Shown here one piece after another: positions 34,251-49,509 of a stretch of 49,509 bases of DNA; within the stretch, counting starts at the first letter, position 1; every line of letters starts with the position of its first letter. This DNA comes from Anaerolineae bacterium (lineage in GTDB: Bacteria > Chloroflexota > Anaerolineae > Anaerolineales > UBA11858): NCBI GenBank assembly GCA_014382605.1, contig JACNJM010000171.1, positions 1 to 49,509 on the forward strand. The letters run 5' to 3'. The notes under the pieces are model-generated. The model saw only the letters and a list, made by a program, of their open reading frames with translations. It was not told where the DNA came from and made no database searches. The position numbers and the translations under genes were made by a program.

Positions 34251-36469
34251 TGTGTGGGTCTCAGTACGGGTTGGGGCTTTATTCTTGCGCCGGTTAGGAA
34301 GCCTTCGGGTAAGGGGATCGGCTCATATTGGGCGCTGGTGCCGATGGAGCCAACGGAGACGAGATAGAGCTGGCTGGCAGCTCCAGCCTCGTAGGGTTGG
34401 TGCGCAAAAATCAGGTAATGCCCATCGGGGCTAAACGCGGGATCGCGATAACAGCATTTGCCGTTGATCGGATTGACTTGTGTATCGGCGCGGTGCAGAT
34501 TGGAGTTGTAAAGATAGAGTTGCCCGAAACCATCATTGCGGGTATAGCTAGTGATTGCATAAAGGTAATTGCCATCGTAGCCAAAATTCTGAATATAGGG
34601 GGTATCTTTGAAATTCTCCATATCGAAGCGCGGCGGCGGAAATTCGTCAAGCAGATCGGGCAAAACCTGGCAACTGCGGGTTTCGTAAATCTTAATCAGA
34701 TCGCCCTGTATGCCGTTGAGCGCGGCCAGCAGCATAATCGACAAACGTGAACCATCTTCCGACCAGCGAACCACTTTGGCGTGAATGATTACCTCAGCGC
34801 CACTGACCATTGGAGCATAAGTTTCGCATTCGCTCATCGCGCGTAAATCAGATGAGAAGCGGGCAACCTGGAGCTGTTCTTTGTCGAAGGGGACGATATA
34901 TAATTCGCGGTTGATCGCGATGGCGGCCTGTGTGCTATCTGGCGAAATGGCAAAGGATTCAAGTTCGCTGGCCGTTTCAAAGCAGGCGATATAATCCAGA
35001 CGGCCCGTTTCATATTCGGCCAGCCAGATGCATTTGCCAGAAATATAGGTCAGGGCTGAACCGTCGGGCGTCCAAGAAAGGTCTGCTTTTTCAGTGCCAT
35101 CAAACGTAATTTGTTCCAGATCGCTGCCATCTACATTCATCACCCAGATATTATTAGTTTCAATAAAAGCGATTTTATCCGCGCCGCCCAGAGTAGGCAA
35201 TTCTGGCGCCGGGGTAAAGGTGGGTTCGGGCGTATTCGTGGGTGGGGCTGCTGCAGTTGCTGTGGCTTGTGCAGGTGCTGGCGTGTTGGTCGTTAACGCA
35301 ACGGCGGTTTCACTGGTGGGGCTGACATCTAGCAGCGGTGCTTCGGTGGTCGCGGCTGGTTCAATTGCAGCCATTGTTGGGGATGCCAGCATTGCCAGAG
35401 GGCCTTGTCCGCGATAGCCCATAAAAGCCGTTGCCAGAAGGATAGCTGCGCCAACGCCGAATAGCAGGAAAGCGCCAATTGCAAGGGGAAGTAAATTGCG
35501 TTTAGGTTTGGCTGCGGCCAATGGAACTGGCGTAGCGAACGGGGGCGGAGTGTGGGGAGGCGGAGTCGATGGGGGTGGGGCAATTTCCGCGGTGGCTTGC
35601 GCGCTGATGCGTGTAGCCGCGACCACGGGTGTTGCTTGCAGGGTGGCATGTCGCTCGCCGCGCAACGCCAATTGCAAAGCCGCCGACATTTCAGCCGCAT
35701 TGGCAAAGCGTTCATCAGGGTCTTTGAGGAGCAATTTTTGCAGCCACAGATCTATCTCGGCGGGAATCTCCGGATTGAGCGTTGTAATATTCGGCACAGG
35801 CTCCAGAATGTGCATCATCATTACTTTAGCCGGAGTTGTGGCCTGGAATGGTGTATGCCCTGTGAGCATGTGATAGAAAATAATCCCCAGAGCATACAAA
35901 TCGCTACGCCCATCCAACCCTTTTTCACCCTGAACTTGTTCAGGACTCATATACGCGGGCGTTCCGATGATATTCTCACCCGTTAGCGTGTGCCCTCCGT
36001 GAGCCAGGCGGGCGATTCCAAAATCAGAAAGATAAGCATTATTATATTGGTCGAAAAGTATATTGCCGGGTTTGAGATCGCGGTGGATAATGCCTTTGGA
36101 ATGTGCAGCATCCAGAGCATCAGCCAATCGGAGAATAATTTTTCCGGCTTCCTGATAGGATAGCGCGCCTTGTTTGAGTTTGTCTGACAGATCCCCGCCG
36201 GACATCATGCGCATAACAATATAGGGTTGCCCATCATCCTCGCCGAAATCGTAAACCGGCACAATTGCTGAGTGTTCCAACGTGGCGACAGTTTTTGCTT
36301 CCCGTTCAAAGCGTGTCCGGAATTGAGGGTCATGCAGGAAGGCGCGTGGCAGAACCTTTAGAGCTACATCGCGCTCAAAATTTGGATCATAGGCCTGGTA
36401 AACCGTCGCCATTCCACCCCGGCCGAGTTCTTTTCTAATTTGATAGCGTCCAATTTTTTCGGGGGACAT
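34247..36469 (-). CDS. Transmembrane Ser/Thr protein kinase with extracytoplasmic beta-propeller domain
   Basis: Hanks kinase motifs GRGGMATVY, VALKV, HRDLKPGNIL, DFG and TPAYMSPEQ. A Pro-rich linker and a TM (LLPLAIGAFLLFGVGAAILLATAF) follow. After a PT/A-rich spacer there is a PD40-like propeller (WTPDGSALTY, FSPDGHYLIF). The stop overlaps the malQ start (ATGA at 34247-34250). Confidence 0.9.
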   Translation of the reverse strand: MSPEKIGRYQIRKELGRGGMATVYQAYDPNFERDVALKVLPRAFLHDPQFRTRFEREAKTVATLEHSAIVPVYDFGEDDGQPYIVMRMMSGGDLSDKLKQGALSYQEAGKIILRLADALDAAHSKGIIHRDLKPGNILFDQYNNAYLSDFGIARLAHGGHTLTGENIIGTPAYMSPEQVQGEKGLDGRSDLYALGIIFYHMLTGHTPFQATTPAKVMMMHILEPVPNITTLNPEIPAEIDLWLQKLLLKDPDERFANAAEMSAALQLALRGERHATLQATPVVAATRISAQATAEIAPPPSTPPPHTPPPFATPVPLAAAKPKRNLLPLAIGAFLLFGVGAAILLATAFMGYRGQGPLAMLASPTMAAIEPAATTEAPLLDVSPTSETAVALTTNTPAPAQATATAAAPPTNTPEPTFTPAPELPTLGGADKIAFIETNNIWVMNVDGSDLEQITFDGTEKADLSWTPDGSALTYISGKCIWLAEYETGRLDYIACFETASELESFAISPDSTQAAIAINRELYIVPFDKEQLQVARFSSDLRAMSECETYAPMVSGAEVIIHAKVVRWSEDGSRLSIMLLAALNGIQGDLIKIYETRSCQVLPDLLDEFPPPRFDMENFKDTPYIQNFGYDGNYLYAITSYTRNDGFGQLYLYNSNLHRADTQVNPINGKCCYRDPAFSPDGHYLIFAHQPYEAGAASQLYLVSVGSIGTSAQYEPIPLPEGFLTGARIKPQPVLRPTQ

Positions 36470-36697: not shown

Positions 36698-37207
36698 ATG
36701 TCCTTACAGTGGTACGTTTTGCGTAGCAAACCCAAAAAAGAAGATGTTGTATACCAGCAGCTTCGAGCGCAAGAATTCGAGAGCTATTTCCCTCGCATTC
36801 GGGTGCATCCAAAAAATCCGCGCGCACGTAAATATAAACCTTATTTTCCAGGTTATATGTTTGTGCGAATCGATCTCGAAGATGTCGGCATGTCTGTATT
36901 CAAATGGATGCCGCATACCCTGGGATTTGTCACCTTTGACGATCAGCCTGCCGCAGTTCAAGAACACATGATTCGAGATATGCAAGGGCGCATACAAGAA
37001 ATTAACGATGCGGGTGGCGAAGTGTTTGATGGATTGAAAGCCGGTGATGCGATTCGCATCGAGCATGGCCCATTTTCGGGATATGAGGCTGTTTTCGACA
37101 CCCGCCTGCCCGGCACAGAGCGGGTACGCGTGTTATTGCAATTACTAAACGATAAACGCATGATCCCCATGGAATTACGTACTTCGCAAATCCGGAAGAT
37201 GGGCTAG
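36698..37207 (+). CDS. Specialised NusG paralog (RfaH/LoaP/UpxY-like transcription antiterminator)
   Basis: NGN-domain start WYVLRSKPKKEDVVYQQL...YFPGYMFVRI and C-terminal KOW GDAIRIEHGPFSGYEAVF. It is not in the secE-nusG-rplK context. It sits 5 nt upstream of a sugar-biosynthesis operon. Confidence 0.8.
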   Translation: MSLQWYVLRSKPKKEDVVYQQLRAQEFESYFPRIRVHPKNPRARKYKPYFPGYMFVRIDLEDVGMSVFKWMPHTLGFVTFDDQPAAVQEHMIRDMQGRIQEINDAGGEVFDGLKAGDAIRIEHGPFSGYEAVFDTRLPGTERVRVLLQLLNDKRMIPMELRTSQIRKMG

Positions 37208-37212
37208 TTGGG

Positions 37213-37908
37213 ATGATATCTGTCTTGGCGCTTATTCCTGCCCGTGGCGGTTCTAAAGGTGTTCCCAATAAGAATATTGCCCGGGTGGGTGGCAAACCAT
37301 TAGTTGCCTGGACGATCTTAGCTGCCAAGCAGGTAAGATCGGTTGATCGAATTGTAGTGACAACCGATTCGCCTGAGATTGCTCGGGTTGCGAGAGATTA
37401 TCAGGCTGAAGTACCCTTTATACGCCCACCAGAATTAGCGCTGGATGATACCCCCGGGATGCCCCCCATTCTCCATGCTATTCAATGGCTGGAAACTAAT
37501 CAGAGTTATTGTCCAGATTATATAATGTGCCTGCAACCGACATCTCCGTTGCGAAGTTCTCAAGATATTGATGCTGTGATTCGCATCGCACTGGATAAGG
37601 ATGCCGATAGTATTGTCAGCGTTTCCTCCGTACAACAGCACCCACAATGGATGAAATATGTGGATGCTGAAGGGCGCATGGCTGATTATTTTCCGGCTGC
37701 GGATTTGATTATGCGTCGTCAAGATTTGCCGCCGGTTTACGCGCTGAATGGGGCGATATACCTGACGCGTCGTAATATTTTACTCGAAAAAGAAACTTGG
37801 TATGCGCCAGAAACTTATGCCTACATCATGCCACCTGAGCGTTCTATAGATATTGATACGTCCTGGGACCTGTACTTGACCAATTTGCTTTTACTGAATC
37901 AGGAATAA
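37213..37908 (+). CDS. neuA: CMP-nonulosonic acid synthetase (acylneuraminate cytidylyltransferase family; NeuA/LegF-like)
   Basis: ALIPARGGSKGVPNKNI...LQPTSPLR...YALNGAIYL are the typical CMP-NeuAc/CMP-Leg synthetase motifs. Confidence 0.85.
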   Translation: MISVLALIPARGGSKGVPNKNIARVGGKPLVAWTILAAKQVRSVDRIVVTTDSPEIARVARDYQAEVPFIRPPELALDDTPGMPPILHAIQWLETNQSYCPDYIMCLQPTSPLRSSQDIDAVIRIALDKDADSIVSVSSVQQHPQWMKYVDAEGRMADYFPAADLIMRRQDLPPVYALNGAIYLTRRNILLEKETWYAPETYAYIMPPERSIDIDTSWDLYLTNLLLLNQE

Positions 37909-38033
37909 TACGTACGAATGAAATATATTACAATTTCTGATCGCAAAATAGGTGTAGACCAGTATCTTTTTATTTCAAAAAATTCTTCAGTGGAGCCTAG
38001 AATATTTTTGCTCTTCCGCCCAAGGATCAAAAT

Positions 38034-39437
38034 ATGTTAACTGCCAAATCAAAAATTTCCTATGGCGTTGGAATAGTGTTAGTTTTAATTGTTTTTTGGG
38101 TTATTTTTGGGATTAGCATGAACAGTAAATTGCTAGACCCAGAAAATCTTTTTGCAGTCACGCTGATAAGTGAACGTACCTATGGGGAGTTTTGGAGCGA
38201 ATCTACATATTCTCATTTTGTTACCTATCGACCTATTATAGCCACGATATTTAAGCTGGAATATGATCTCTTGGGTTTTAGTCCTAAGGTTCTGAATTTT
38301 ACATCACTGGTTCTGTTAGCTGTGCTTTCCTGCCAAATTTACGATATTGTCTTTAGGCGTTCTAAAAATATGCTGACGGCAGTAATACCGGCTTTATTTT
38401 TCGTTACAGATTGGAGACTTCAAGAGAATGTAGACACTTTTATTGGTGCACAAGATACGTTAGCGGGCATTTTTGGTTTATGGGCATTATGGGTTTTGTG
38501 GTTTAGTCAAACTAAATATAAAGCTGGGATTACATTTTTATTATTACTAGCATCTTTTATGAGTAAAGAATTTGGAATGGCTTTTGCGTTAGCTGTGCTT
38601 GTTTTTGCTTTGTACGAGAAACCAAAACAATGGAAATCAATAGTTATGGCATCTTTTGGTGCAGTTGCGGTTTTCGTTGCGATTAGATTAGTCCTGGGTT
38701 TAATTCCGTTGCCTGGAGAATATCCATCCTTTATGAACAGAGCAAAATGGAGCCTAATTAATATTGCAAGCGGTTTTATTTTTACATTTCTCCCTTCCTT
38801 TACTGGTTCAGATGGAGAGTTGCCCTTATTCAACAATATTAATCTTCCGCCGACGAATCATTTCCAACTGAACGATTCAACGATAATTTTATTTCAGGTT
38901 ATTCCGATTGTGGTTTTGTTTTTATTGGGGTTTAGCAATAAAAAAGAGCGCAAATTATATCTCCCGTTATTTTTTTTGATTATCGGAAATTCTGTACTGT
39001 TTTTCTATAAATATGCTTATCGGTTTCATTTCATAGGAATTATTGGCATGTATTTGATTGTAGGGCTTGGAATTGATTTTCTTTATAATAAATTGACCCG
39101 GAAATTACAATTAGTCGAAATTTCCACCATATTTTTAATACTTTTAGCAATGATATTGCAACAACGTGGTTTATATTTACATGATTATTTCAGGAGCTAT
39201 CTGGAATGGAATGATCCTAGTCAATGCACTAGTGATTTAGGTTATAGTCCGGCAGAAATCGAGAGGTGCTTAACGTATAGGAGTCTCTGCATTCCTACTG
39301 AAGAATATTATTTACGAGAAGATTTTCACGGATATTATTCAGCAACTACACCCGACACTGTACGTTTAGTGATGCAATATTATGAAATTCCTGCTGAATA
39401 CTGTACTTGTTTAAATCCAAGTCCAAAATGTGAATAA
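38034..39437 (+). CDS. Polytopic GT-C-like membrane protein (PMT_2/TMTC-like N-terminal signature) with Cys-rich C-terminal domain; paralog P1
   Basis: 467-aa ORF with AAGGA 7 nt upstream. It has LDPENL...HFVTYRPIIATIFKLEYDLLGFSP...FFVTDWRL, about 11 TM segments, and a C-terminal QC..ERC..LCIPTEEYYL...EYCTCLNPSPKC. It is clearly homologous along its whole length to the ORF at 47874..49310. The DNA is visibly AT-rich (about one-third GC in sampled lines). Confidence 0.7.
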   Translation: MLTAKSKISYGVGIVLVLIVFWVIFGISMNSKLLDPENLFAVTLISERTYGEFWSESTYSHFVTYRPIIATIFKLEYDLLGFSPKVLNFTSLVLLAVLSCQIYDIVFRRSKNMLTAVIPALFFVTDWRLQENVDTFIGAQDTLAGIFGLWALWVLWFSQTKYKAGITFLLLLASFMSKEFGMAFALAVLVFALYEKPKQWKSIVMASFGAVAVFVAIRLVLGLIPLPGEYPSFMNRAKWSLINIASGFIFTFLPSFTGSDGELPLFNNINLPPTNHFQLNDSTIILFQVIPIVVLFLLGFSNKKERKLYLPLFFLIIGNSVLFFYKYAYRFHFIGIIGMYLIVGLGIDFLYNKLTRKLQLVEISTIFLILLAMILQQRGLYLHDYFRSYLEWNDPSQCTSDLGYSPAEIERCLTYRSLCIPTEEYYLREDFHGYYSATTPDTVRLVMQYYEIPAEYCTCLNPSPKCE

Positions 39438-39555
39438 TTCTGAGTTCAATATAAAGTGTAACTTGGAGTGCGATGATGCGCACTTGTTTGTAGAATCAAC
39501 CCATCGAAGCTATATATCCGCCTTTTTTCCGAGAAATGGTTATGGATATAAGTAC

Positions 39556-39666
39556 AGGACTTACGCACTTTCGCAAAAGAAAGCCCGAAAATAGGGGTGT
39601 GTGGGGCGCAAAGCGCCCCACACACCCCTATTTTCGGCATATTTTTCATCGTTTTGCGTAAGTCCT
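39556..39666. repeat. Palindromic repeat element, copy D (own 12-bp TIRs; possible intra-operon terminator)
   Basis: Outer inverted repeat AGGACTTACGCA (39556-39567) / TGCGTAAGTCCT (39655-39666). The inner palindrome has perfect 25-bp arms: CCGAAAATAGGGGTGTGTGGGGCGC-AAA-GCGCCCCACACACCCCTATTTTCGG (39585-39637), followed by CATATTTTT. Confidence 0.6.
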
Positions 39667-39690
39667 AAAGTATATTGCGAGAGTGACGTA

Positions 39691-40746
39691 ATGGTTTCAT
39701 TCATAGAAATTCATGATCGCGTTATTGGGGATGGAAATCCCTGTTTTATCATCGCTGAAGCCGGTGTAAATCATAATGGTGATATTGCTCTGGCGAAAAA
39801 ACTGATAAATGTTGCCGTTGATGCTGGCGCGGATGCGGTTAAATTTCAGACTTTTAAGGCCGATCAATTGGTCAGCCCGGATACACCTAAAGCTGCCTAT
39901 CAGAAAGGAACTACCAGCGGCGCTGAATCTCAATTCGAAATGCTGCGCCGTTTAGAGCTATCTCTCGAAGCGCATCGCGAACTAAAAAATTATTGTTTTG
40001 AGAGTGGTGTTCTGTATATGTCCACTCCCTTTGACGAAACCAGCGCCGATTTTTTAGCTGAACTGGGCCTGGAAGTATATAAAACTTCATCAGGTGATAT
40101 AACCAATTTGCCTCTCTTGACGCATATTGCGTGCAAAGCCAAACCGATGATTATCTCTACTGGAATGGCAACGCTGGAAGAAGTAGATAAAGCTGTACGC
40201 ACGGTACGCGATTCAGGCAACCAGAAGTTGGTGCTATTGCATTGTGTCAGCAACTATCCAACACACCCAGTAGATGTTAATTTGCGTGCCATGCACACAC
40301 TTGCCAGAGAATTTGATGTCCCCGTGGGATTTTCGGATCATACCACTGGGATTGATATCGCCATTGCCGCAGTAGCGTTGGGGGCGAGAGTTCTGGAGAA
40401 ACACTTCACGCTTGATCGTAACCTCCCGGGACCGGATCACCAGGCGTCTGTGGAACCGGATGAATTGACCGCCATGGTTGCCAGCATCCGCCGCGTGGAA
40501 GCCGCGCTGGGCGATGGTATCAAGCAGCCAGTTGCGTCAGAACTCCTCATTGCCGATGTGGGCCGTCGAAGTTTGCATTGGAATGAGATGCTTTCTCCGG
40601 GCACAATCATTGTCCGGGATCATCTGATTGCTCTGCGCCCTGGAACCGGAATATCACCCGCCAGAATAATGGATTTTATAGGCTGTCGTTTGTGCAGGTC
40701 TGTGCAACCGGGCGAGATGGTTTTTGAGGATGATGTGGAAAAATGA
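39691..40746 (+). CDS. neuB: Nonulosonic acid synthase (NeuB/LegI family, with C-terminal SAF domain)
   Basis: CFIIAEAGVNHNGDIALAKKLINVAVDAGADAVKFQTFKA plus HCVSNYPT and FSDHT. ATG 39691 is preferred because the listed start 39601 lies inside repeat D. Confidence 0.9.
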   Translation: MVSFIEIHDRVIGDGNPCFIIAEAGVNHNGDIALAKKLINVAVDAGADAVKFQTFKADQLVSPDTPKAAYQKGTTSGAESQFEMLRRLELSLEAHRELKNYCFESGVLYMSTPFDETSADFLAELGLEVYKTSSGDITNLPLLTHIACKAKPMIISTGMATLEEVDKAVRTVRDSGNQKLVLLHCVSNYPTHPVDVNLRAMHTLAREFDVPVGFSDHTTGIDIAIAAVALGARVLEKHFTLDRNLPGPDHQASVEPDELTAMVASIRRVEAALGDGIKQPVASELLIADVGRRSLHWNEMLSPGTIIVRDHLIALRPGTGISPARIMDFIGCRLCRSVQPGEMVFEDDVEK

Positions 40747-41912
40747 GAACTGTAGGCGTTGTTACCGTCGGGCGCTCGGATTATGGCATTTATTTGCCAC
40801 TATTGCGCGCCATTAAAGCTGATCCTGATTTGCAGTTGCATCTCTTCGTTTCCGGCATGCACCTTTCCCCCGAGTATGGCCTGACCGTTGAAGATATTGA
40901 AGCTGATGGTTTTGAAATCACTTCGCGTGTCGAGATGCTCCTTTCATCCGACACGCCCGAAGGGATTTCAAAATCTATGGGGATGGGCGCACTGGGCTTT
41001 GCTCAAGCTTACACAAACACACGTCCAGACATTTTAGTAGTTTTGGGTGATCGTTTCGAGATGCACGCCGCAGCTCTGGCAGCATTGCCTTTCAAAATAC
41101 CGGTGGCCCATATTCACGGCGGCGAAATCACTCAGGGCGCCATCGATGATGCCCTGCGACACTCGATGACCAAGTTGAGTCATTTGCATTTTGTCAGTAC
41201 GCGAGAATACGCTCAACGGGTAATCCAACTTGGCGAGGAGCCGTGGCGTGTCGTTGTTTCGGGAGCGCCCGGTTTGGACAACTTGGCGCATACACCGTTG
41301 TTGACCCGTGAAGAATTTTTCACGCAGTTTGAAATCCAGTGGGGTGATGCACCATTTCTATTGGTCACCTACCATCCGGTTACATTGGAATATGAGCGCG
41401 CAGAATGGCAGACGGCAGAATTACTGGCGGCACTGGAGATGGTGAACTTGCCCGTGATTTTTACTCAACCCAACGCTGATACGGGGGGGCGCGTCATAGC
41501 GCAAATGATAGCGGATTTTGTTGATGCTCACCCGAATGCTCAATTGATTAATAACTTAGGCACACAGGGTTATTTCAGTGTGATGGCTCATGCAGCAGCT
41601 ATGATTGGCAACTCATCGAGTGGTATTATTGAAGCGGCATCATTCGAACTCCCGGTGGTTAATCTAGGATCACGTCAGGCCGGGCGCGTGCGCGGAGCAA
41701 ATGTCATTGATGTGGATCATCCCCGAGAAGCTGTACTAGAAGGTATTCGGCTGGCGCTTTCGCCGCGCTTCCGCACTGATTTGAGCGGGATGAAGAATCC
41801 CTATAGCGAGGGTGAAGCAGCCCAAACCATCATCACAGCGCTCAAACAGGCCCAGCTCGATGAAAGGTTAATTGTCAAACACTTTTATGATCTGGGGGGG
41901 AAAACCGGATAG
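40743..41912 (+). CDS. neuC: UDP/GDP-N-acetylhexosamine 2-epimerase, hydrolysing (NeuC/LegG family)
   Basis: VVTVGRSDYGIYLPLLRAI...VLGDRFEMHAAALAA...PVAHIHGGE. The start overlaps the neuB stop (ATGA). Confidence 0.88.
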   Translation: MRTVGVVTVGRSDYGIYLPLLRAIKADPDLQLHLFVSGMHLSPEYGLTVEDIEADGFEITSRVEMLLSSDTPEGISKSMGMGALGFAQAYTNTRPDILVVLGDRFEMHAAALAALPFKIPVAHIHGGEITQGAIDDALRHSMTKLSHLHFVSTREYAQRVIQLGEEPWRVVVSGAPGLDNLAHTPLLTREEFFTQFEIQWGDAPFLLVTYHPVTLEYERAEWQTAELLAALEMVNLPVIFTQPNADTGGRVIAQMIADFVDAHPNAQLINNLGTQGYFSVMAHAAAMIGNSSSGIIEAASFELPVVNLGSRQAGRVRGANVIDVDHPREAVLEGIRLALSPRFRTDLSGMKNPYSEGEAAQTIITALKQAQLDERLIVKHFYDLGGKTG

Positions 41913-41984
41913 TTTTTAAAAGTATCATACCTGCGGGCAATTTTGAATTGTTTATTTGGAGTGCGCCATTATAAAGGATATGCT

Positions 41985-42635
41985 ATGGCTGTGAAGGCAA
42001 TCGGATTTGGGGCGGGGGGACACGCCAGGGTTATTATTGAGATTCTGCGTTTTGATGGCTCCTATGATTTGGTGGGACTCCTGGACCCCGGGCCGGAATT
42101 ACGCGGCCTTGACGTTTTGGGTGTCCCTGTTCTAGGAGGCGATGACTTGCTTCCTGAGTTGGTACAGCATGGTATCGTACATTTCTTTGTCGGCCTGGGC
42201 GGTGCGGGCAATAATCTGCCGCGCCAACATCTCTATGAAAAAGCATTGCAACATATCATGCAGCCGCTTCAAGCGATCCATCCTCGCGCTATTATCTCTC
42301 CTTTTGCAGAAATTGGCGTGGGGGCAATAATCATGGCCGGGGCTGTTGTCAACACCTGCTCACGCTTAGGCCAGAATGTGATTGTTAATACCAATGCAGT
42401 TGTTGAACATGATTGTATAATCGGAGATCATGTGCATATTGCCCCAGGCGCGTTGTTGGCGAGCGCGGTTCGAGTGGAGAGTGGCGCACATGTTGGCATT
42501 GGTGCAGTTATCCACCAAGGGCTTACGATTGGTGAGAAGGCTGTTATCGGAGCTGGAGCGGTGGTAGTGGAAGATGTTTTACCCAATACGGTTGTGGTGG
42601 GTGTTCCGGCACGTCGTTTATACGGAGAAAAGTAG
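41985..42635 (+). CDS. Sugar N/O-acetyltransferase, NeuD/PglD/LegH-like (left-handed beta-helix)
   Basis: The N-terminal Rossmann-like segment is IGFGAGGHARVIIEILRFDGSYDLVGLLD. Hexapeptide repeats IGDHVHIAPGALLASAVRVESGAHVGIGAVI follow. AAAGGA lies upstream of ATG 41985. Confidence 0.75.
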   Translation: MAVKAIGFGAGGHARVIIEILRFDGSYDLVGLLDPGPELRGLDVLGVPVLGGDDLLPELVQHGIVHFFVGLGGAGNNLPRQHLYEKALQHIMQPLQAIHPRAIISPFAEIGVGAIIMAGAVVNTCSRLGQNVIVNTNAVVEHDCIIGDHVHIAPGALLASAVRVESGAHVGIGAVIHQGLTIGEKAVIGAGAVVVEDVLPNTVVVGVPARRLYGEK

Positions 42636-43514
42636 TTGAATCTTCGCATCATACCCAGACTGGATATTAAAGGCCCCAATTTAGTAAAAGGCGTTCATCT
42701 GGAAGGATTGCGTGTATTGGGCCGTCCTGAAGATTTTGCACGCTTTTATTACCAAAACGGGGCTGATGAACTGATCTATCAGGATGCGGTGGCCAGTCTT
42801 TATGGCCGGAACAGCTTGCTGGAGATCATTGAACGTACCGCAAGCGAAATTTTTATCCCCCTGACGGTAGGTGGTGGCCTGCGAAGTGTGGAAGATATTC
42901 GCACTGTATTGCGCGCCGGAGCAGATAAAGTTGCAATCAACACCGCGGCAGTCAACACCCCGGAACTGATTCGAGATGCAGCGCTGGCTTTTGGTTCATC
43001 AACCATTGTAGTTTCGATCGAGGCGATTAAACAGGCAAATGGAAAATACGAAACCTATGTTGATTATGGTCGGGAGAGTACCGGAGTTGATGCTGTTGAA
43101 TGGGCCTCGCGAGCCGCTGATCTGGGCGCAGGTGAACTGCTGGTTACCTCAATTGGTCAAGAAGGCACAGGCAAGGGCTACGATCTGGAATTAACCCGTC
43201 AGATTGCACAGGCAGTAGCCATTCCCGTGATTGCCCTGGGCGGTGCTGGCCAACTGGAGCATATTTATGATGTTATCGCTGATGGCTATGCTGATGCGGT
43301 CAGCCTAGCTTCAATGTTGCATTATGAATTTATCCATAAATATCAATTTCGCCAAGGCGATTATCAGATAGAAGGTAATATTGAATTTTTGCTAGGTAAA
43401 CGCGGTGAATTTGGGCGTAAGAATATTACGGGGACAACGATTCGTAAAATCAAAGAATATTTGTTAGAGCATGGGGTCGACTGCCGAATGGAAAAGGGAG
43501 CCGCTGGTGTCTAA
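42636..43514 (+). CDS. HisF-like cyclase subunit of a glutamine amidotransferase (WbuZ-like, sugar acetamidino pathway)
   Basis: RIIPRLDIKGPNLVKGVHLEG...ADELIYQD...GGGLRSVEDI...GADKVAINTAA is HisF fold. There are no other his genes nearby, and it is linked to HisH-like and WbuX-like genes. TTG start directly after the neuD-like stop. Confidence 0.85.
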   Translation: MNLRIIPRLDIKGPNLVKGVHLEGLRVLGRPEDFARFYYQNGADELIYQDAVASLYGRNSLLEIIERTASEIFIPLTVGGGLRSVEDIRTVLRAGADKVAINTAAVNTPELIRDAALAFGSSTIVVSIEAIKQANGKYETYVDYGRESTGVDAVEWASRAADLGAGELLVTSIGQEGTGKGYDLELTRQIAQAVAIPVIALGGAGQLEHIYDVIADGYADAVSLASMLHYEFIHKYQFRQGDYQIEGNIEFLLGKRGEFGRKNITGTTIRKIKEYLLEHGVDCRMEKGAAGV

Positions 43515-44187
43515 TCGCGACGTGTGCATTGCTATTGTAGATTATGGATTGGGCAACTTGTTTAGTGTAAAACAGGCCTGTGAGTATGCCGGGATGGATG
43601 CTCAGATTACATCCTCCAAACAAGAGCTTTTTGATGCTGACGCTGTAATCTTGCCTGGGGTTGGCGCTTTCGCTGACGCAATGAGCGAGTTGAAAAAATT
43701 GGATTTGATTGTCCCCCTGCAAGATTACAGCCAAACCGGAAAATCGTTGTTTGGCATCTGTTTGGGGATGCAACTTTTAATGTCGGAAAGTTATGAATTC
43801 GGAATGCACAAAGGTTTGGGTATCGTTGATGGGGATGTTGTGCCTCTGGAAAATATATCATCCTTTTTTAACGGTGTTCCCCGAATGCTGAAGGTTCCCC
43901 AAGTTGGCTGGAATCAAATCCGGCGTAGGGCAGATCATAATAACTGGGTCGGAACACCGTTCGATGGTCTATCTGATGGTGAATATATGTATTTTGTACA
44001 CTCTTTTTACGTACGCCCGCAAGAGGATGCGCTGGTACTCTCCCGTACGCGCTATGGGCAAATGGAGTTTTGCTCCAGTCTAAAGTATAATAACGTCTTC
44101 GCTTGTCAGTTTCATCCAGAGCGGAGCGGACGACAAGGTTTATTGGTGTACGAAAACATTGCGAAAATTGTAGCAACAACTCAATAA
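43507..44187 (+). CDS. HisH-like class-I glutaminase subunit (WbuY-like)
   Basis: IAIVDYGLGNLFSV...ILPGVGAFADAM...GICLGMQLL (catalytic Cys)...CQFHPERSG. GTG 43507 has AAGGGAG upstream and overlaps the hisF-like stop by 8 nt. Confidence 0.85.
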   Translation: MSNRDVCIAIVDYGLGNLFSVKQACEYAGMDAQITSSKQELFDADAVILPGVGAFADAMSELKKLDLIVPLQDYSQTGKSLFGICLGMQLLMSESYEFGMHKGLGIVDGDVVPLENISSFFNGVPRMLKVPQVGWNQIRRRADHNNWVGTPFDGLSDGEYMYFVHSFYVRPQEDALVLSRTRYGQMEFCSSLKYNNVFACQFHPERSGRQGLLVYENIAKIVATTQ

Positions 44188-44278
44188 AGCGTAGGAAAAG
44201 CCTGAAAAGCCGATGTGAATAAAGGATAATGCTCCGACAGACAACATCGCTTGGATCGTGTATTTTTTGGAGTAACTT

Positions 44279-45499
44279 ATGACTGGTGAAATAAAACCTT
44301 TATATGGTCTTCCTGAGAAGGTTATTTATTGCAAGCGCTGTGTTATGTCGAATCAGAGACCTTCATCCTACCCGGAATTCAAGCACACCAAAGACCGTCA
44401 AACTCCTACGTTGAATATCGGTGCTGATGGCATTTGTGATGCTTGCCGATATGCCGATGTAAAAGAAGGTATAAATTGGGAAACTCGCGAGAAAGAGTTA
44501 GCCCATTTGTGCGATCAGCATCGTCGCGATGATGGGTATTATGACTGCATTGTGCCCGGTAGTGGCGGAAAGGATAGCGTCTACGCAGCGCATATCTTGA
44601 AGTATAAATACGGGATGCATCCGCTGACCGTGACTTGGCCTCCTATCATGTATACCGATTATGGCTATCACAACTTCCGTAACTGGATCGAGGTTGGTGG
44701 CTTTGATAATGTGAGTATGAACCAGAACGGCCGCGTTATGAAACTGCTCACACGGCTGGCAATCGAAAATCTATTGCATCCATTTCAGACTTTTATTTTG
44801 GGACAAAAGAACTTGGCTCCGAAGATGGCGTTGCGCTATAACATCCCATTGGTGTTTTATGGTGAAAACGAAGCTGAGTATGGCAACCCTATTGCCGAAA
44901 ACGCATCTTCGCTACGCGATAAATCGTATTATACGATGCAAAATTTTAAGAATATGTTCTTGGGTGGTGTTTCAGTACAGGAACTGATCGAACACTACGA
45001 CGTTTCTTTGGTTGATTTGATGACCTATCTGCCCGCCGATTACCGCGAGATTGAAAAGTCACAAATCGAAATCCACTACCTGGGCTACTATCTGAAGTGG
45101 ATCCCGCAAGAAGCTTATTATTATGCCGTTGATAACACCGGTTTTCAGGCGCGGCCCTTTCGCACCCAGGGGACATATAGCAAATACAATAGTATCGATG
45201 ATAAGATCGACGATTTGCATTACTATACAACCCATGCCAAGTTTGGGCTGGGGCGGGCTTCTTACGATTCATCGCAAGAAGTGAGAAACAAGCATCTTAC
45301 CCGTGACGAGGCAGTGACCCTGGTGAAACGTTATGACGGCGAGTTTCCCGACCGTTACTTCGCTGAAGTGATGGAGTATATTAGCATGGATCCAGAGCAT
45401 TTCATCGAATTATGTGATAGGGCCAGATCGCAGCATCTGTGGACGAAAGAGAGTGGTGAGTGGAAGTTGCGCTACCCAGTTTGGGAAGTAGAAGCGTAA
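44279..45499 (+). CDS. N-acetyl sugar amidotransferase (PP-loop ATPase, WbuX/PseA-like)
   Basis: N-terminal Zn-ribbon CKRCVMSNQRPS...GICDAC and PP-loop VPGSGGKDS. Size and order match WbuX-type enzymes that work with HisH/HisF paralogs. Confidence 0.8.
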   Translation: MTGEIKPLYGLPEKVIYCKRCVMSNQRPSSYPEFKHTKDRQTPTLNIGADGICDACRYADVKEGINWETREKELAHLCDQHRRDDGYYDCIVPGSGGKDSVYAAHILKYKYGMHPLTVTWPPIMYTDYGYHNFRNWIEVGGFDNVSMNQNGRVMKLLTRLAIENLLHPFQTFILGQKNLAPKMALRYNIPLVFYGENEAEYGNPIAENASSLRDKSYYTMQNFKNMFLGGVSVQELIEHYDVSLVDLMTYLPADYREIEKSQIEIHYLGYYLKWIPQEAYYYAVDNTGFQARPFRTQGTYSKYNSIDDKIDDLHYYTTHAKFGLGRASYDSSQEVRNKHLTRDEAVTLVKRYDGEFPDRYFAEVMEYISMDPEHFIELCDRARSQHLWTKESGEWKLRYPVWEVEA

Positions 45500-45544
45500 C
45501 CGAGGGATACTCCGATTACCATTTTCTTGAGAAGAGACCGGGTA

Positions 45545-45790
45545 ATGGAATATCCGGAATGGATTGAGAGAGAACGGCGCATACGCACCAGAATACTTTT
45601 GGATTGGCCTGAGGCCCGCGACGATGGAGTTTTTCGAATTTGCCAGTCCTGCGGGGAAATTTGTTTATGCTCCGAGAAAACTTGCCCAAATTGCAATGTC
45701 GCTGAGATTACTAAAGAAAGAATTGATTTGGCGGAGTTACTAAGCGGAAGCCGGATTCGTTGTCAATATCGGTTTGAGAATTTGCCCTGA
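45545..45790 (+). CDS. Small zinc-ribbon protein, unknown function
   Basis: Short ORF (81 aa from ATG 45545) with CQSCGEICLCSEKTCPNC (CxxC...CxxC). It lies between wbuX-like and the CBS-NTP transferase gene on the same strand. Coding status is uncertain. Confidence 0.35.
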   Translation: MEYPEWIERERRIRTRILLDWPEARDDGVFRICQSCGEICLCSEKTCPNCNVAEITKERIDLAELLSGSRIRCQYRFENLP

Positions 45791-45804
45791 CCCGAGTAAT
45801 AAAT

Positions 45805-46890
45805 ATGGCAGTTGACCTTTCAGATTTGTGCATTTCTTCTGGTAGCGTAATTCGACAGGTGATTGAGAAGATCAATCTCAATGGGCTGGGAATTGCACTC
45901 GTTGTGGATGATAAACGGATTTTAATTGGCACGATCACCGATGGCGATGTGCGCCGTGCAATTCTTGTTGGGAACGACCTTGATTCTCCCGTAGATGAAT
46001 TACTAAAAAACAAAGCCTCAATTTACTCTCCGAAACCGATCACGGTCTCGCCGCGGGCAGAGCGGAGTGAAATGCTGCGCCTGATGAAAGAATATGTTAT
46101 TCATCAATTGCCTGTATTGGATGATGACGGGCGTGTGATTGCCCTGGTCACGATGGATGACCTGTTGACCGAAGAAGAACAGCAAAAACTGCCCTTGCAG
46201 GCGGTTGTGATGGCGGGCGGCTTTGGCACGCGTTTGCGCCCCCTGACCGAAGAATTGCCTAAACCGCTGCTTCCAGTGGGCGACCGCCCTTTATTGGAAC
46301 GCACCATCGAGCAGTTGCGACAGGCCGGAATTCGCAATGTGAGTATCACTACGCATTTCATGGCTGAAAAAATCAAACAGCATTTTGGCGATGGTAATGT
46401 GTTTGGCGTCGATATTAACTATGTGGAAGAGATCACTCCACTGGGAACGGCGGGCGCGCTGGGTTTGATGGATACTCCCAAAGACCCGTTGTTGGTAATT
46501 AATGGCGATATTCTCACACAAGTAAATTTTCGAGCTATGCTGGCTTTCCATCGGCAAAATCAGGCTGCCCTTACGGTGGCAGTACGGCGTTTTGAGTTCA
46601 AGGTTCCCTATGGTGTTATTAAAAGCGAAGGGCCTTTTGTGAAGGGTCTGAGCGAAAAACCCGTGTTGAATTTTTTTGTCAATGCCGGAATCTATTTATT
46701 AGAACCATCGGTTTATGAATATATTCATTCAGACCAGCACCTGGATATGACCGAGTTGATCCAAATTCTTTTGGATAATGATTGCAAGGTTGCCAGTTTC
46801 CCGATTGTTGAATACTGGCTGGATATTGGGCAACACACCGACTACGAACAGGCGCAACAAGATATAAAGGATGGGAGGCTTCATTCTTGA
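45805..46890 (+). CDS. CBS-pair + sugar-1-phosphate nucleotidyltransferase (PtmE-like)
   Basis: The N-terminal tandem CBS region is (GTITDGDVRRAIL... / HQLPVLDDDGRVIALVTMDDLL). The NTP-transferase motif AVVMAGGFGTRLRPLTEELPKPLLPV follows. Confidence 0.8.
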   Translation: MAVDLSDLCISSGSVIRQVIEKINLNGLGIALVVDDKRILIGTITDGDVRRAILVGNDLDSPVDELLKNKASIYSPKPITVSPRAERSEMLRLMKEYVIHQLPVLDDDGRVIALVTMDDLLTEEEQQKLPLQAVVMAGGFGTRLRPLTEELPKPLLPVGDRPLLERTIEQLRQAGIRNVSITTHFMAEKIKQHFGDGNVFGVDINYVEEITPLGTAGALGLMDTPKDPLLVINGDILTQVNFRAMLAFHRQNQAALTVAVRRFEFKVPYGVIKSEGPFVKGLSEKPVLNFFVNAGIYLLEPSVYEYIHSDQHLDMTELIQILLDNDCKVASFPIVEYWLDIGQHTDYEQAQQDIKDGRLHS

Positions 46891-47870
46891 ACTGGCAAAC
46901 AAAAAGAGTTTTAGTTACAGGGGCCGGGGGCTTTATTGGTAGTCATCTTGCAGAAGAACTGGCGCGCCGTGGCGCGCGGGTGCGCGCCTTTGTTCATTAT
47001 AATGCTCTTGGACGATGGGGTTGGCTTGATACCTCTCCACTGAAAGATGAGATTGAAGTTATTGCCGGGGATATCGCCGACCGGGATAGCGTGCGCGGTG
47101 CTGTCAAGGGAGTCGATGTTGTTTTTCACTTGGCGGCACTGATTGGCATTCCCTACTCATACCAGGCTCCGTCATCGTATGTGCAGACCAATATCGTAGG
47201 CACGCTGAATGTACTACAATCTGCCCTCGAGCAGAGTGTGGAGCGCGTGGTGCATACTTCTACCAGCGAAGCCTATGGCACAGCGCAATACGTGCCGATT
47301 GATGAGGCCCATCCCTTGCAAGGTCAGTCGCCATACTCGGCGACCAAGATTGGCGCCGATAAGCTGGCCGAGTCATTTTATCGCTCGTTTGAGTTGCCGG
47401 TTGCAACCATTCGCCCTTTTAATACCTATGGGCCACGGCAGTCGGCGCGGGCGGTTATTCCCACCATTATCACGCAGGCGCTCACAAGGCCAGAAATTAA
47501 CCTCGGCAATCTCATCCCCACCCGCGATCTGAATTTCGTTCTCGATACTGTGGCGGGCTTTATCCGCATGGCAGAAGAGCACCGGGCAGTCGGCCAGGTT
47601 ATTAATATCGGTTCAGGAAATGAGATTTCAATCGGTGATCTGGCTGCATTAATCTTGAAATTGATGGGGAAGGATATCCCCATTTTTACCGAAGATCAGC
47701 GCTTGCGCCCTGAAGCCAGCGAGGTGGATCGCTTATGCGCGGATAATACAAAAGCCCAGAAACTTCTGGGCTGGGAACCAATATTCACCCTGACAGAGGG
47801 GTTGATGCAAACCATCGATTGGGTAAGGGCGAATGCCGCTTTGTATCACCCATCGGTTTACACTGTATAG
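46887..47870 (+). CDS. legB: NAD-dependent sugar-nucleotide 4,6-dehydratase (SDR; LegB-like)
   Basis: VLVTGAGGFIGSHL, HLAALIGIPYSY, TSTSEAYG, SPYSATK and RPFNTYGPRQSARAVIPTIITQ closely match my recollection of the Campylobacter LegB family. TTG start with GGGAGG 8 nt upstream; it overlaps the previous stop. Confidence 0.8.
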   Translation: MNWQTKRVLVTGAGGFIGSHLAEELARRGARVRAFVHYNALGRWGWLDTSPLKDEIEVIAGDIADRDSVRGAVKGVDVVFHLAALIGIPYSYQAPSSYVQTNIVGTLNVLQSALEQSVERVVHTSTSEAYGTAQYVPIDEAHPLQGQSPYSATKIGADKLAESFYRSFELPVATIRPFNTYGPRQSARAVIPTIITQALTRPEINLGNLIPTRDLNFVLDTVAGFIRMAEEHRAVGQVINIGSGNEISIGDLAALILKLMGKDIPIFTEDQRLRPEASEVDRLCADNTKAQKLLGWEPIFTLTEGLMQTIDWVRANAALYHPSVYTV

Positions 47871-49310: not shown

Positions 49311-49509
49311 TGCTAAATTTCCTTGAATGCGAGGAGCGAGGCTCAGACTTCTTTAATGGTATCGAGCAAACCTGACCGGGCACGAATTCTATCATAATTT
49401 TGATTGAATCGGATTCTTGTTGATGGTTGGGCCATCCTTCGTGATACAGTTCAACCAGGGCAATTGCATCTAAATAGATTTTTAGTGAAATTTTCACCGC
49501 GAAGACGCG

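Follow-up and report, generated by a model that had tools for sequence, protein, structure and literature searches.

ArnT (family GT83; PDB 5EZM/5F15), the enzyme of lipid A aminoarabinosylation, is the GT-C transferase of the Arn system, which also includes ArnA, ArnB and ArnC. A GT2 enzyme, a GtrA flippase and a GT-C protein together form the common logic of the GtrA/GtrB/GtrC systems of enterobacterial phages, of CsbB/GtcA/YfhO and of the Pgf protein-glycosylation system of Streptococcus mutans (PgfS/PgfM1/PgfM2; PMC5856776). The eukaryotic TMTC1-4 O-mannosyltransferases, the bacterial TMTC-like proteins and the oligosaccharyltransferases PglB, AglB and STT3 are further points of comparison. 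Very few enzymes are known for the building of legionaminic acid (Leg) or pseudaminic acid glycans past the CMP-sugar stage, and next to nothing has been established about the envelope glycans of Chloroflexota.

Here, a 49,509-nucleotide stretch of DNA from an Anaerolineae bacterium (the window) was analysed. It carries a Leg locus encoding two paralogous membrane proteins, designated P1 and P2, and the reading favoured on balance is that these act outside the cytoplasm, in the manner of the Arn and Gtr systems, to glycosylate a surface glycoconjugate that contains Leg. P1 and P2 share the GT-C fold with ArnT (TMq 0.44), the GT2 partner of P2 aligns over its full length with ArnC (9hwj), and the gene module includes a sugar aminotransferase and, in locus L003, a formyltransferase (compare ArnB/ArnA/ArnC). 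The predicted donor is likewise a polyprenyl-phosphate-linked 4-(acyl)amino sugar, which would be transferred at the outer face of the membrane. Unlike ArnT, however, P1 and P2 have 11 transmembrane (TM) helices rather than 13 and a small Cys-rich tail in place of the ArnT periplasmic domain, and there is no sequence match between them; moreover, the aminotransferase of the P2 locus is not ArnB-like but of the WecE type (dTDP-4-amino-4,6-dideoxyhexose). Chloroflexota are, to our knowledge, without lipid A, and therefore the acceptor must differ from that of ArnT.

The closest named relatives of P1 and P2 are the bacterial TMTC-like proteins and TMTC1-4, with which they share the first-loop and YRP/KE-type motifs; unlike those proteins, their soluble part is a 6-Cys module of ~85 amino acids and their context is nonulosonate (NulO) loci. 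The three-component logic of the Gtr systems is seen in two relatives (L058 and L063), in which the GT2, GtrA and GT-C genes are all adjacent. In contrast to the Gtr systems, the GT-C protein is of a different, unnamed family, the GtrA gene lies elsewhere in this genome (contig C320), an amino-dideoxyhexose probably takes the place of glucose as the donor sugar, and the setting is a legionaminic acid locus. PglB, AglB and STT3 rank highest in the Foldseek search (E ~1e-3, TMq 0.46-0.55) and share the GT-C core and an acidic first-loop motif; unlike P1 and P2, to which they are only 12-14% identical, they possess a WWDYG motif and a large C-terminal periplasmic domain, and the partner genes of the P1/P2 family indicate monophosphate-linked single-sugar donors.

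The legionaminic acid locus and its paralogous pair

The features of the locus are collected in Table 1. An earlier note, made from the sequence of the window alone, had P1 and P2 bracketing the sugar locus. This arrangement is an assembly artefact. P1 is an internal gene of the operon, flanked by those for the CMP-NulO synthetase and NeuB, and P2 seems to close the locus only because the window comprises contig C295 in full, which ends 199 bp beyond the P2 start. A metagenome contig, L020, which is 99.88% identical to window positions 39689-49509 and 99.69% identical to C171, a 3.9-kb contig of the same genome, continues past P2 with six further glycan genes. These encode, in order, a 316-amino-acid GT2, WbqC, a methyltransferase, a WecE-type transaminase (598 bits, above cut-off), LegC (477 bits, above cut-off) and a TagF-like protein. 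In this MAG an assembly gap of 2.55 kb separates C295 from C171, and the ArnC-like GT2, WbqC and methyltransferase genes are predicted to be present in this genome too. The assembly breaks at a dispersed repeat in the intergenic region between the divergent P2 and ArnC-like GT2 genes; a full copy is present at L020 6265-6468, and a search of the repeat upstream of P2 for inverted repeats gave no perfect arms.

Table 1. Features of the legionaminic acid locus in the window.
Feature	Coordinates	Strand	Evidence and remarks
NusG-family paralogue, head of locus	36698..37207	+	Pfam NusG, 66 bits
CMP-nonulosonate synthetase (CTP_transf_3)	37213..37908	+	PseF-like, 159 bits, under equivalog cut-off
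P1, predicted GT-C-fold membrane glycosyltransferase	38034..39437	+	11 predicted TM helices; extracytoplasmic 6-Cys C-terminal domain (~382-467)
NeuB/LegI-type nonulosonate synthase	39601..40746	+	TIGR03569, 450 bits, above cut-off
Hydrolysing NDP-HexNAc 2-epimerase (NeuC/LegG type)	40743..41912	+	TIGR03568, 453 bits, above cut-off
PglD/LegH-type N-acetyltransferase	41943..42635	+	PglD_N, Hexapep
HisF-like, HisH-like and WbuX N-acetyl-sugar amidotransferase triad	42636..45499	+	TIGR03573, 350 bits, above cut-off
CBS-nucleotidyltransferase (PtmE-like) and NDP-HexNAc 4,6-dehydratase (LegB-like)	45805..47870	+	Pfam
P2, paralogue of P1	47874..49310	-	478 aa, 44% identity to P1
Dispersed repeat, first 55 bases of ~200 bp	49455..49509		At least 20 copies on other contigs, 96-100% identical

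Within the operon, the HisF-like/HisH-like/WbuX triad is assigned to acetamidino formation, and the true start of the NeuB/LegI-type synthase is probably position 39691, which gives the 351-amino-acid protein called on related contigs (L025). The NusG-family paralogue occupies the same place in two other loci (L004 and L024) and is a probable operon-specific antiterminator. P1 is preceded by an AAGGA ribosome-binding site 8 nt 5' of its ATG, and a scan for promoters and terminators around it gave counts no higher than the shuffled expectation. P2 is convergent with the last gene of the operon, with 3 nt between the stop codons.

Both P1 and P2 are intact open reading frames, the former of 467 amino acids. 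Pairwise alignment bore out their proposed end-to-end similarity (44% identity and 62% positives over 438 amino acids, E 3e-115), and all of the shared motifs quoted in the earlier note were found (HFVTYRP, FFVTDWRL, SKEFG, SSGFIFTF, YAYRFHF, LCIPT..EYY and EYCTCL.P.P.C). The C-terminal block indeed contains six cysteines within the last ~70 residues of each protein, at positions 398/412/419/457/459/466 of P1 and 404/418/425/463/465/472 of P2, with no cysteine in the other loops.

An orthologue of P1 that is 90% identical and likewise adjoins the NeuA and NusG genes is present in a genome of the same genus (G070), and a positional orthologue of P2 (P0008, 68% identical) is present in a related Anaerolineales MAG (L004). 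The dN/dS ratios for these pairs are 0.13 and 0.09, respectively, which shows that purifying selection acts on both proteins. At the position of P1 in the syntenic loci L004, L003 and L027 there is no GT-C gene. Recent tandem or segmental duplication was considered as the origin of the pair and rejected on the basis of the tree, in which P1 and its G070 orthologue fall outside a clade formed by P2 and four other lineages. P1 and P2 are best regarded as two members of a small family, as yet without a name, in the GT-C superfamily, and their divergence is ancient.

Predicted fold, topology and conserved residues

On the evidence of profile searches, P1 and P2 fall outside every Pfam and NCBIfam family. 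P1 matched Pfam PMT_2 (PF13231) at 17.3 bits (E 0.0056), under the gathering threshold of 26.1, and the same search with P2 gave no match. PMT_2 or PMT matches were obtained for six of 48 family members (best E 2e-6 for PMT_2 and 2e-4 for PMT), with PMT_2 at E ≤ 0.1 in only three; Pfam searches of ten relatives that are 25-30% identical gave nothing useful. In P1 and P2, no Pfam match was found to TMTC_DUF1736 or TPR, or to Wzy_C at E ≤ 1; an NCBIfam search returned no family, the WWD(YG) motif is absent, and a search of PDB sequences, ArnT chains included, with either P1 or a 48-sequence profile found no match. The suggested resemblance to PMT_2/TMTC-type transferases is nevertheless real at a remote level, as phmmer matches P1 to proteins with TMTC_DUF1736/PMT_2 and TPR domains (E 1e-8 to 1e-5 over residues ~50-220). 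At E ≤ 1e-3 and 50% identity the family resolves into about 210 clusters, close members being only a handful, and for annotation purposes it deserves a name; the deep alignment was built from an exhaustive representative search, to which a word-indexed profile search added almost no members.

An AlphaFold2 model computed on 48 sequences (pLDDT 86.2, pTM 0.90) superseded an earlier model on seven sequences (pLDDT 64). In a Foldseek search of the PDB with the former, the top 22 matches were all GT-C proteins (TMq 0.44-0.55, probability 0.99-1.00), among them PglB, AglB, STT3, ArnT, DPY19, Pmt4, Emb and AftB, and the seven-sequence model likewise placed GT-C proteins on top. There were no WaaL or SEDS structures among the matches. 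As judged from these models, the earlier suggestion of a GT-C-like transferase is well founded at the level of predicted fold.

The predicted topology comprises 11 hydrophobic helices with the N-terminus inside, the loops being by turns short and K/R-rich or long and acidic, and the AlphaFold2 secondary structure concurs. This agrees with the GT-C superfamily, whose members have 8-13 TM helices and a cytoplasmic N-terminus. By TM count and the positive-inside rule, the Cys-rich tail is predicted to be extracytoplasmic, as had been presumed; the C-terminal domain is modelled with moderate confidence (pLDDT 49-88). Directly after TM1, in the first outer loop, P1 carries D35-P-E37, a D-x-(D/E) motif, to which D44 and E46 of P2 correspond. 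Position 37 is acidic in 47/48 family members, and D35 is present in all nine close members and in 20 of 39 distant ones. Moreover, R66, P67, E179, R218 and R330 are invariant in the 48 members, and conservation reaches 95% or more at D126, R128, Q140 and K178. In the predicted topology all of the conserved polar residues are located in outer loops or at outer-leaflet helix ends.

Gene neighbourhoods and donor supply

GT-C enzymes use lipid-linked donors, and it had seemed puzzling that such proteins should sit in a locus whose sugar is CMP-activated. P2 is divergently paired with the 316-amino-acid GT2, an ArnC/GtrB-type polyprenyl-phosphate sugar synthase (L020 5291-6241), and with amino-sugar enzymes. 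The apparent paradox dissolves because a synthase of this type would give an ordinary lipid-linked donor, and it had arisen solely from the truncation of the contig. The GT2 of locus L004, a 79% identical orthologue, aligns with ArnC (E 2e-53) and with GtrB sll0501 (E 1e-45) and has two C-terminal TM helices. The pairing of a P2-type GT-C gene with an ArnC-like gene recurs in L004 and in L003, in the latter with the formyltransferase gene, and a further family locus (L013) adds FdtA, DegT and a methyltransferase. GtrA-like genes adjoin the ArnC-like gene in L058 and L063, and the present genome has one GtrA_DPMS_TM gene. No ArnC-like GT2 gene is found beside P1, the partner was not seen in L001, L026, L027 or L064-L075, and G070, a P1-only genome, has no P2-linked ArnC-like module.

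The earlier statement that the locus lacks a conventional GT-A/GT-B transferase holds within the window, but not beyond it, since the TagF-like protein encoded ~5 kb past the window end is a TagF/Glyphos_transf-like GT-B. This 490-amino-acid protein is weakly similar to the NulO-transferase family of Tannerella BFO_1060 and is a candidate CMP-Leg transferase. Across the wider family it was seen only in close Anaerolineales loci, and therefore it is not a family-wide partner.

A survey of homologues showed that the family is strongly linked to NulO loci. Thus, of the two outcomes by which the earlier claim would have failed, assignment to a fold other than that of a glycosyltransferase and homologues unconnected with sugar loci, neither was observed. 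NulO genes are present in 5/5 close-family loci, and NeuB and/or NeuA are encoded within 10 kb in seven of the nine distant-family metagenome loci having at least 7 kb of sequence. This adjacency is far above chance in the family, including members of other lineages that are 25% identical, and in an Omnitrophota locus the family gene overlaps both neuB and neuC. Genes for an ArnC/GtrB-type synthase, a GtrA-like protein and amino-dideoxyhexose enzymes are frequent further neighbours. A third, distant paralogue in the present genome (C170) and loci L017-L019 are without NulO context. NulO genes are a more constant neighbour of the family than the ArnC-like gene, which could reflect a relation to NulO more direct than simple decoration.

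Possible roles of P1 and P2

P1 and P2 most likely add lipid-carried sugars to the surface glycan outside the cell, and in this they would represent a new enzyme family with a well-known mode of action. The paralogy, fold, topology, motif conservation and neighbourhoods are as described above; for the donor, the acceptor and the role of the tail we infer the following. A cytoplasmic ArnC/GtrB-type GT2, which for P2 would be its divergent neighbour, would load a nucleotide-activated sugar onto polyprenyl phosphate. For P2, this sugar is probably synthesised by the WecE-type aminotransferase, WbqC and the methyltransferase encoded alongside, and would be an N-modified 4-amino-4,6-dideoxyhexose. 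The lipid-linked sugar would then be flipped, possibly by a GtrA-like protein of the kind encoded once in this genome and adjacently in relatives, and the GT-C protein would move it, at the outer face, onto a glycoconjugate bearing the operon-made legionaminic acid (Leg5Am7Ac-type) residue. The probable enzyme for joining this residue to the glycoconjugate, in the cytoplasm, is the TagF-like GT-B. Catalysis would involve the D-x-(D/E) motif of the first outer loop, with R66, K178, E179, R218 and R330 at the outer membrane interface, and the tail, of ~85 residues and presumably disulfide-bonded, stands in the place of the TPR domain of the TMTC-like relatives and may aid acceptor binding. The disulfides predicted for P1 are C419-C457, as the ancestral pair, and C459-C466 and C398-C412 as additions to it. 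Experiments could thus address the hypothesis that lipid-linked amino sugars are used at the outer face to build part of a Leg-containing surface glycan.

PMT and PMT_2 proteins are, with TMTC-like proteins, the closest sequence relatives, and the PMT topology, with 11 TM helices, the N-terminus inside and the C-terminus outside, is the layout predicted for P1 and P2. It is conceivable, though unlikely, that these are PMT/TMTC/Pgf-type protein O-glycosyltransferases, which would take a single sugar from polyprenyl phosphate and place it on Ser/Thr residues of S-layer or other secreted proteins; the Leg glycan might then be built upon that sugar, or be unrelated to it. The ArnC-like partner scores 149 bits against PgfS of the S. 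mutans Pgf system, and many of the fold matches (PglB, STT3, DPY19 and Pmt4) act on proteins. However, P1 and P2 are without a MIR or TPR acceptor-binding domain, no Ser/Thr-rich or S-layer acceptor candidate recurs in the loci examined, and the constant neighbour is NulO biosynthesis rather than a protein substrate.

That oligosaccharyltransferases head the Foldseek matches could point instead to en-bloc transfer, with P1 and P2 acting as an oligosaccharyltransferase/ligase or polymerase on a polyprenyl-diphosphate-linked Leg oligosaccharide, which after flipping would be ligated to a protein or cell-wall acceptor or have its repeat units polymerised. A close association with NulO operons would be expected on this view, and the step is otherwise without a candidate in the ~20-kb contexts, where no Wzy, WaaL or PglL-type genes were seen. 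This reading is nonetheless improbable, as P1 and P2 lack both a WWDYG-type motif and a large periplasmic domain such as PglB and AglB have, their TM-scores to oligosaccharyltransferases are no better than those to ArnT/PMT after allowing for length, and neither an initiating phosphoglycosyltransferase nor a Wzx flippase was found in the loci examined. The recurring ArnC-like and GtrA-like partners, moreover, suggest monophosphate-linked single sugars.

A dedicated 'nonulosonate GT-C' family, in which Leg is transferred outside from polyprenyl-phosphate-Leg or the tail recognises a Leg acceptor, comes into consideration because the coupling to NeuB/NeuA extends over Anaerolineales, Omnitrophota and several metagenome lineages and in some cases is translational, within the NulO operon; we hold this to be quite improbable. 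A literature search found no functional work on WbqC, or on GT-C enzymes tied to legionaminic or nonulosonic acid, and were transfer from polyprenyl-phosphate-Leg true it would represent a new route of NulO glycosylation and a new CAZy family. In its specific form P1 and P2 would be direct NulO transferases, Leg being put on polyprenyl phosphate by the TagF-like GT-B or a GT2. The position of P1 between CMP-synthetase and synthase genes, the translational coupling of the Omnitrophota member to neuB and neuC, and the family-wide partnership with NeuB/NeuA in place of any single donor-synthesis module are all consistent with this. It is, however, very doubtful: we know of no system for which a polyprenyl-phosphate-linked NulO donor is established, and none was found in the literature. 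In addition, the locus contains a conventional candidate CMP-Leg transferase, and the ArnC-like partner has its own amino-sugar enzymes (WecE-type, FdtA and formyltransferase), which implies a non-NulO donor.

Finally, that P1 and P2 are non-enzymes (a structural protein, transporter or flippase) on a GT-C scaffold is scarcely credible, since, although matches to curated GT-C families are under threshold and no PDB sequence match was obtained even by profile, the acidic first-loop motif and outer-interface charges are invariant across relatives of ~25% identity in an active-site-like manner, and the Foldseek probability of transporter folds is ≤0.16.

Under the favoured Arn/Gtr-type reading, P1 would be a separately acquired paralogue, with low GC3 and missing from syntenic relatives, that differs in donor and/or acceptor specificity. 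Both genes are AT-rich, as had been noticed at the outset, with a GC content of 0.349 for P1 and 0.420 for P2 against 0.521 +/- 0.044 for the genome, which places them in the lowest 0.7% and 2.1%, respectively, of 1.4-kb genome windows. Horizontal acquisition of both genes, as a reading of this AT-richness, was rejected for P2, in which GC3 (0.463) is the same as in the neighbouring genes (0.41-0.54) and the low GC is thus mostly a matter of membrane-protein composition. A foreign-looking third-position bias is seen in P1 only (GC3 0.297). A GC content lower than that of the locus is common for polytopic glycan-locus genes, and the family genes all lie 2-10 GC points (0.02-0.10) under their loci.

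Family identity and fold of P1 and P2

Both reading frames of the paralogous membrane proteins P1 and P2 lie where the earlier note had placed them, each with an AAGGA ribosome-binding site 8-9 nt 5' of the ATG. The end-to-end paralogy it described was borne out by BLASTP, which aligned 438 residues with 9 gap positions (44% identical, 62% positives, E 3e-115), and all of the shared motifs it quoted are present. Purifying selection acts on both: dN/dS is 0.13 when P1 is compared with its ortholog (90% identical) from a genome of the same genus, and 0.09 for P2 and its positional ortholog (68% identical).

In Pfam, P1 matched only PMT_2 and scored below threshold (17.3 bits, E 0.0056), so that the pair are not members of that family; NCBIfam and the PDB sequences gave no match. 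The family is rare (7 clusters at 90% identity among 5.8 billion), and an exhaustive phmmer search of 1.84 billion representatives returned 210 matches at E <= 1e-3, 40 at E <= 1e-10 and 4 at E <= 1e-30. A close family, 40-50% identical, comes entirely from uncultured Anaerolineales; a wider family of 420-470-aa proteins (21-30% identity) is without a Pfam match; and remote matches over residues ~50-220 are TMTC-like proteins in which TPR repeats accompany a PMT_2 or TMTC_DUF1736 membrane domain, consistent with the PMT_2/TMTC resemblance noticed earlier. Full-length members occur in 5 of 301 genomes of the order. Of 48 aligned family members, 3 matched PMT_2 (best 2e-6) and 3 matched PMT (best 2e-4).

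An AlphaFold2 model was built from the 48-sequence alignment (pLDDT 86.2, pTM 0.90). Its best 22 Foldseek matches in the PDB were all GT-C enzymes, including PglB, AglB, STT3, ArnT, DPY19, Pmt4, EmbA/B and AftB (TMq 0.35-0.55, probability 0.99-1.00); transporters scored a probability of <=0.16, and an earlier, shallower model gave the same answer. P1 and P2 are thus almost certainly GT-C proteins, as had been proposed, and we regard them as a new, unnamed family and domain variant within a type of system already known.

Eleven hydrophobic helices are present. The short loops (108-112, 158-163, 196-201, 301-307 and 352-359) are K/R-rich and the long loops and tail acidic, which by the positive-inside rule places the N-terminus in the cytoplasm and the Cys-rich tail (382-467) outside, in agreement with the earlier presumption. 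Residues R66, P67, E179, R218 and R330 are invariant in all 48 sequences, and conservation is at least 95% for D126, R128, Q140 and K178. In 47 of the sequences the residue at position 37 is acidic (E in close-family members, D elsewhere), and with D35 it makes up a D-x-(D/E) motif directly after TM1. Such a motif in the first loop is a GT-C hallmark. The motif and the other conserved residues all lie in outer loops or outer-leaflet helix ends.

Each protein carries six Cys in its last ~70 residues (398, 412, 419, 457, 459 and 466 in P1; 404, 418, 425, 463, 465 and 472 in P2) and none in other loops. Nearly all members of the wide family have C419 and C457, which probably pair in a single ancestral disulfide. 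C459 and C466 are confined to the close family (9/9), and C398 and C412, found in seven of its nine members, were lost together. The six-Cys domain thus elaborates a family-wide mini-domain, ...PC...V..(I/L)K..Y.....C, for which no matching known domain was found.

Both genes had been described as AT-rich. Their GC is indeed low (P1 0.349, P2 0.420; genome 0.521 +/- 0.044), within the lowest 0.7% and 2.1% of 1.4-kb genome windows, respectively. However, only P1 (GC3 0.297) looks foreign in composition: the GC3 of P2 (0.463) resembles that of its neighbours (0.41-0.54), so its low GC resides in codon positions 1 and 2 and reflects a hydrophobic protein. Homologous genes in other genomes all fall below the GC of their own loci.

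Coordinates of the features discussed
Feature	Location	Strand	Product
P1	window 38034-39437	+	467 aa
P2	window 47874-49310	-	478 aa
Locus genes	window 36698-47870
NeuB, as listed	window, GTG start 39601		381 aa
Ser/Thr kinase-PD40 and 4-alpha-glucanotransferase genes	window 32751-36469; L027 4-5318
~200-bp repeat	window 49455-49509 (part); L020 6265-6468 (full copy)
WbqC	L020 4605-5294; L004 8147-8836
Methyltransferase beyond P2	L020 3974-4597		207 aa
Other SAM-methyltransferases	L013 1322-2128; L027 7553-8149; C170 9274-9957
TagB/TagF-like GT-B	L020 97-1569 = C171 2292-3764		490 aa
Third paralog	C170 9954-11333		459 aa
Protein upstream of P0004	L001 7535-9790		751 aa

True extent of the locus

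The locus geometry seen in the window is an assembly artefact. The window makes up the complete contig C295, one of 339 in the MAG, and ends 199 bp upstream of P2. The 16.2-kb metagenome contig L020, which carries exactly P2, is 99.88% identical to window positions 39689-49509. It also matches the 3.9-kb contig C171, from this MAG as well, along its whole length at 99.69% identity, and so bridges the two. Moving away from P2, a 2.55-kb gap (read from L020) and C171 encode a GT2 (316 aa, transcribed divergently from P2), WbqC (PF08889, 270 bits), a methyltransferase, a WecE-type dTDP-4-amino-4,6-dideoxyhexose transaminase (598 bits in NCBIfam against a cut-off of 375), an aminotransferase of the LegC family (477 bits against 420) and, adjoining it, a TagB/TagF-like GT-B. 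P2 therefore occupies a middle position in the glycan locus, and P1 lies inside the operon, between the CMP-nonulosonic acid (NulO) synthetase and NeuB; the two do not bracket the locus. The break was caused by a dispersed ~200-bp repeat in the divergent P2/GT2 intergenic (promoter) region; it has imperfect terminal inverted ends (GTTGAAC...GGGCAAT.GCATCT) and at least 20 genome copies (96-100% identity) on other contigs, several at contig ends.

The window part of the locus encodes a NusG paralog, the CMP-NulO synthetase, P1, a NeuB-type synthase, a NeuC-type hydrolysing epimerase, a PglD-type acetyltransferase, a HisF/HisH/WbuX amidotransferase triad, a CBS-nucleotidyltransferase and a 4,6-dehydratase. 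Together with LegC, and read against established pathway knowledge, this gene set indicates a legionaminic acid (Leg)-type pathway that includes an acetamidino module. On related contigs the NeuB product is called as 351 aa, and its real start is probably at ~39691, giving a P1-neuB spacer of ~250 bp.

The earlier statement that no conventional GT-A/GT-B sialyltransferase-like gene is present fails for the extended locus, where the GT2 and the TagF-like protein are conventional GT-A and GT-B candidates. The latter exceeds the Pfam Glyphos_transf (TagB/TagF) threshold (28.5 vs 22.1 bits), is weakly similar to NulO transferases of the Tannerella BFO_1060 family (28 bits, well short of the cut-off) and to TIGR04396, and is kept in L001 (86%) and in L004, from a related Anaerolineales MAG (44%). 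We regard it as a candidate CMP-legionaminate transferase.

NulO association, and a proposed donor supply and mechanism

A survey of homolog context upheld the association with NulO genes. Every close-family locus (window, L001, L003, L004, L010/L027) is in or beside a Leg-type locus, and in the distant family NeuB and/or NeuA lie within 10 kb in 7 of 9 metagenome loci of >=7 kb (L058, L060, L061, L064, L066, L072 and L075); by estimate rather than formal test, a random gene would be expected this close to neuB in far fewer than 1% of cases. In an Omnitrophota locus a 624-aa member overlaps neuB before it and neuC after it. Exceptions are L017-L019, L076, L063 (ArnC-like and GtrA only) and the paralog on C170, another contig of this MAG.

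The L004 ortholog of the L020 GT2 (79% identical) aligns full-length with ArnC structures (E 2e-53) and GtrB sll0501 (E 1e-45) and has two C-terminal TM helices and a GEYLAR motif; the best NCBIfam matches of the L020 GT2 itself are ArnC (186 bits) and PgfS (149 bits), both below equivalog cut-offs. The GT2 divergent from P2 is thus an ArnC/GtrB-type polyprenyl-phosphate glycosyltransferase. The pairing of such a GT2 with a family member is seen again in L004, where its companions are WbqC and a WecE-type aminotransferase, and in L003, where they are a formyltransferase and two aminotransferases, a gene-for-gene analogue of ArnC/ArnA-FT/ArnB. A distant member in the same genus (L013) has a methyltransferase, FdtA, DegT and an ArnC-like gene, and in L058 and L063 the gene after the ArnC-like one encodes a GtrA-family flippase; the single GtrA gene of the present genome is on a different contig. 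The congeneric genome G070 has no family member other than the P1 ortholog and is without the P2-linked GT2, which assigns the ArnC-like module to P2, not P1.

The simplest interpretation is an Arn/Gtr-type system of several components, working in the same way as ArnT/ArnC, GtrA/B/C, CsbB/YfhO or PgfS/PgfM. P1 and P2 are not ArnT members, as there is no sequence match. An N-modified amino-dideoxyhexose would be synthesised in the cytoplasm, placed on polyprenyl phosphate by the ArnC-like GT2, flipped, and passed by the GT-C at the outer face to a Leg-containing glycoconjugate. The TagF-like GT-B would probably attach Leg itself in the cytoplasm, and the Cys-rich tail, standing in for the TPR domain found in TMTC-like relatives, probably helps acceptor recognition. 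We consider a polyprenyl-monophosphate donor for P2 fairly probable; the Leg-glycan as acceptor is a more tentative proposal, somewhat short of even. Three rivals are less likely but keep some probability. Protein O-glycosylation of the PMT/TMTC/Pgf kind is the first, and the remote matches are TMTC-like; P1 and P2 themselves, without TPR or DUF1736, are not TMTC members. En-bloc ligation or polymerisation is another; PglB and STT3 are among the fold matches, but P1 and P2 lack the WWDYG motif and large domain of STT3/PglB and are not Wzy_C members. Direct transfer of lipid-linked NulO is a third, and the literature search found no paper connecting GT-C enzymes to legionaminic or other nonulosonic acids. 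The main value of P1 and P2 is as a handle on the finishing of Leg-containing glycans outside the cell.

In L020 and L004 the WbqC gene lies between those of the ArnC-like GT2 and WecE-type aminotransferase, the position of the formyltransferase in L003. From this swap, WbqC may act in N-acylation or N-modification; no functional literature on it was found. A small SAM-methyltransferase directly adjoins family members in four contexts (L013, L027, L020 and C170), which suggests that the sugar donor or product carries an N- or O-methyl group.

Paralogs and variation among genomes

In the tree, P1 and its G070 ortholog fall outside a clade of P2 and four other lineages, so that the two are old paralogs. 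Since P1 is absent from the syntenic loci L004, L003 and L027, its insertion between neuA and neuB is lineage-specific. The third, distant paralog, on C170, is ~22% identical to P1 and of the wide-family type; it has the ancestral Cys pair only, overlaps the stop of a 227-aa methyltransferase gene and is without NulO context.

Genomes of the genus differ in their GT-C complement, as is seen in serotype-type variation. Between L032 (G070) and window 36698-39437, protein identity over adjacent genes is mosaic (NusG 99%, CMP-synthetase 86%, P1 90%), a pattern suggestive of recombination breakpoints where the glycan locus begins. In L001, a 751-aa protein without a Pfam match is encoded immediately upstream of the P1-like homolog P0004, and no homolog of it was detected in this genome. 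The kinase-PD40 and 4-alpha-glucanotransferase genes adjoin the locus both in the window and in L027, where a GT-C gene directly abuts the kinase gene; the glycan island therefore has a conserved left border and variable content.
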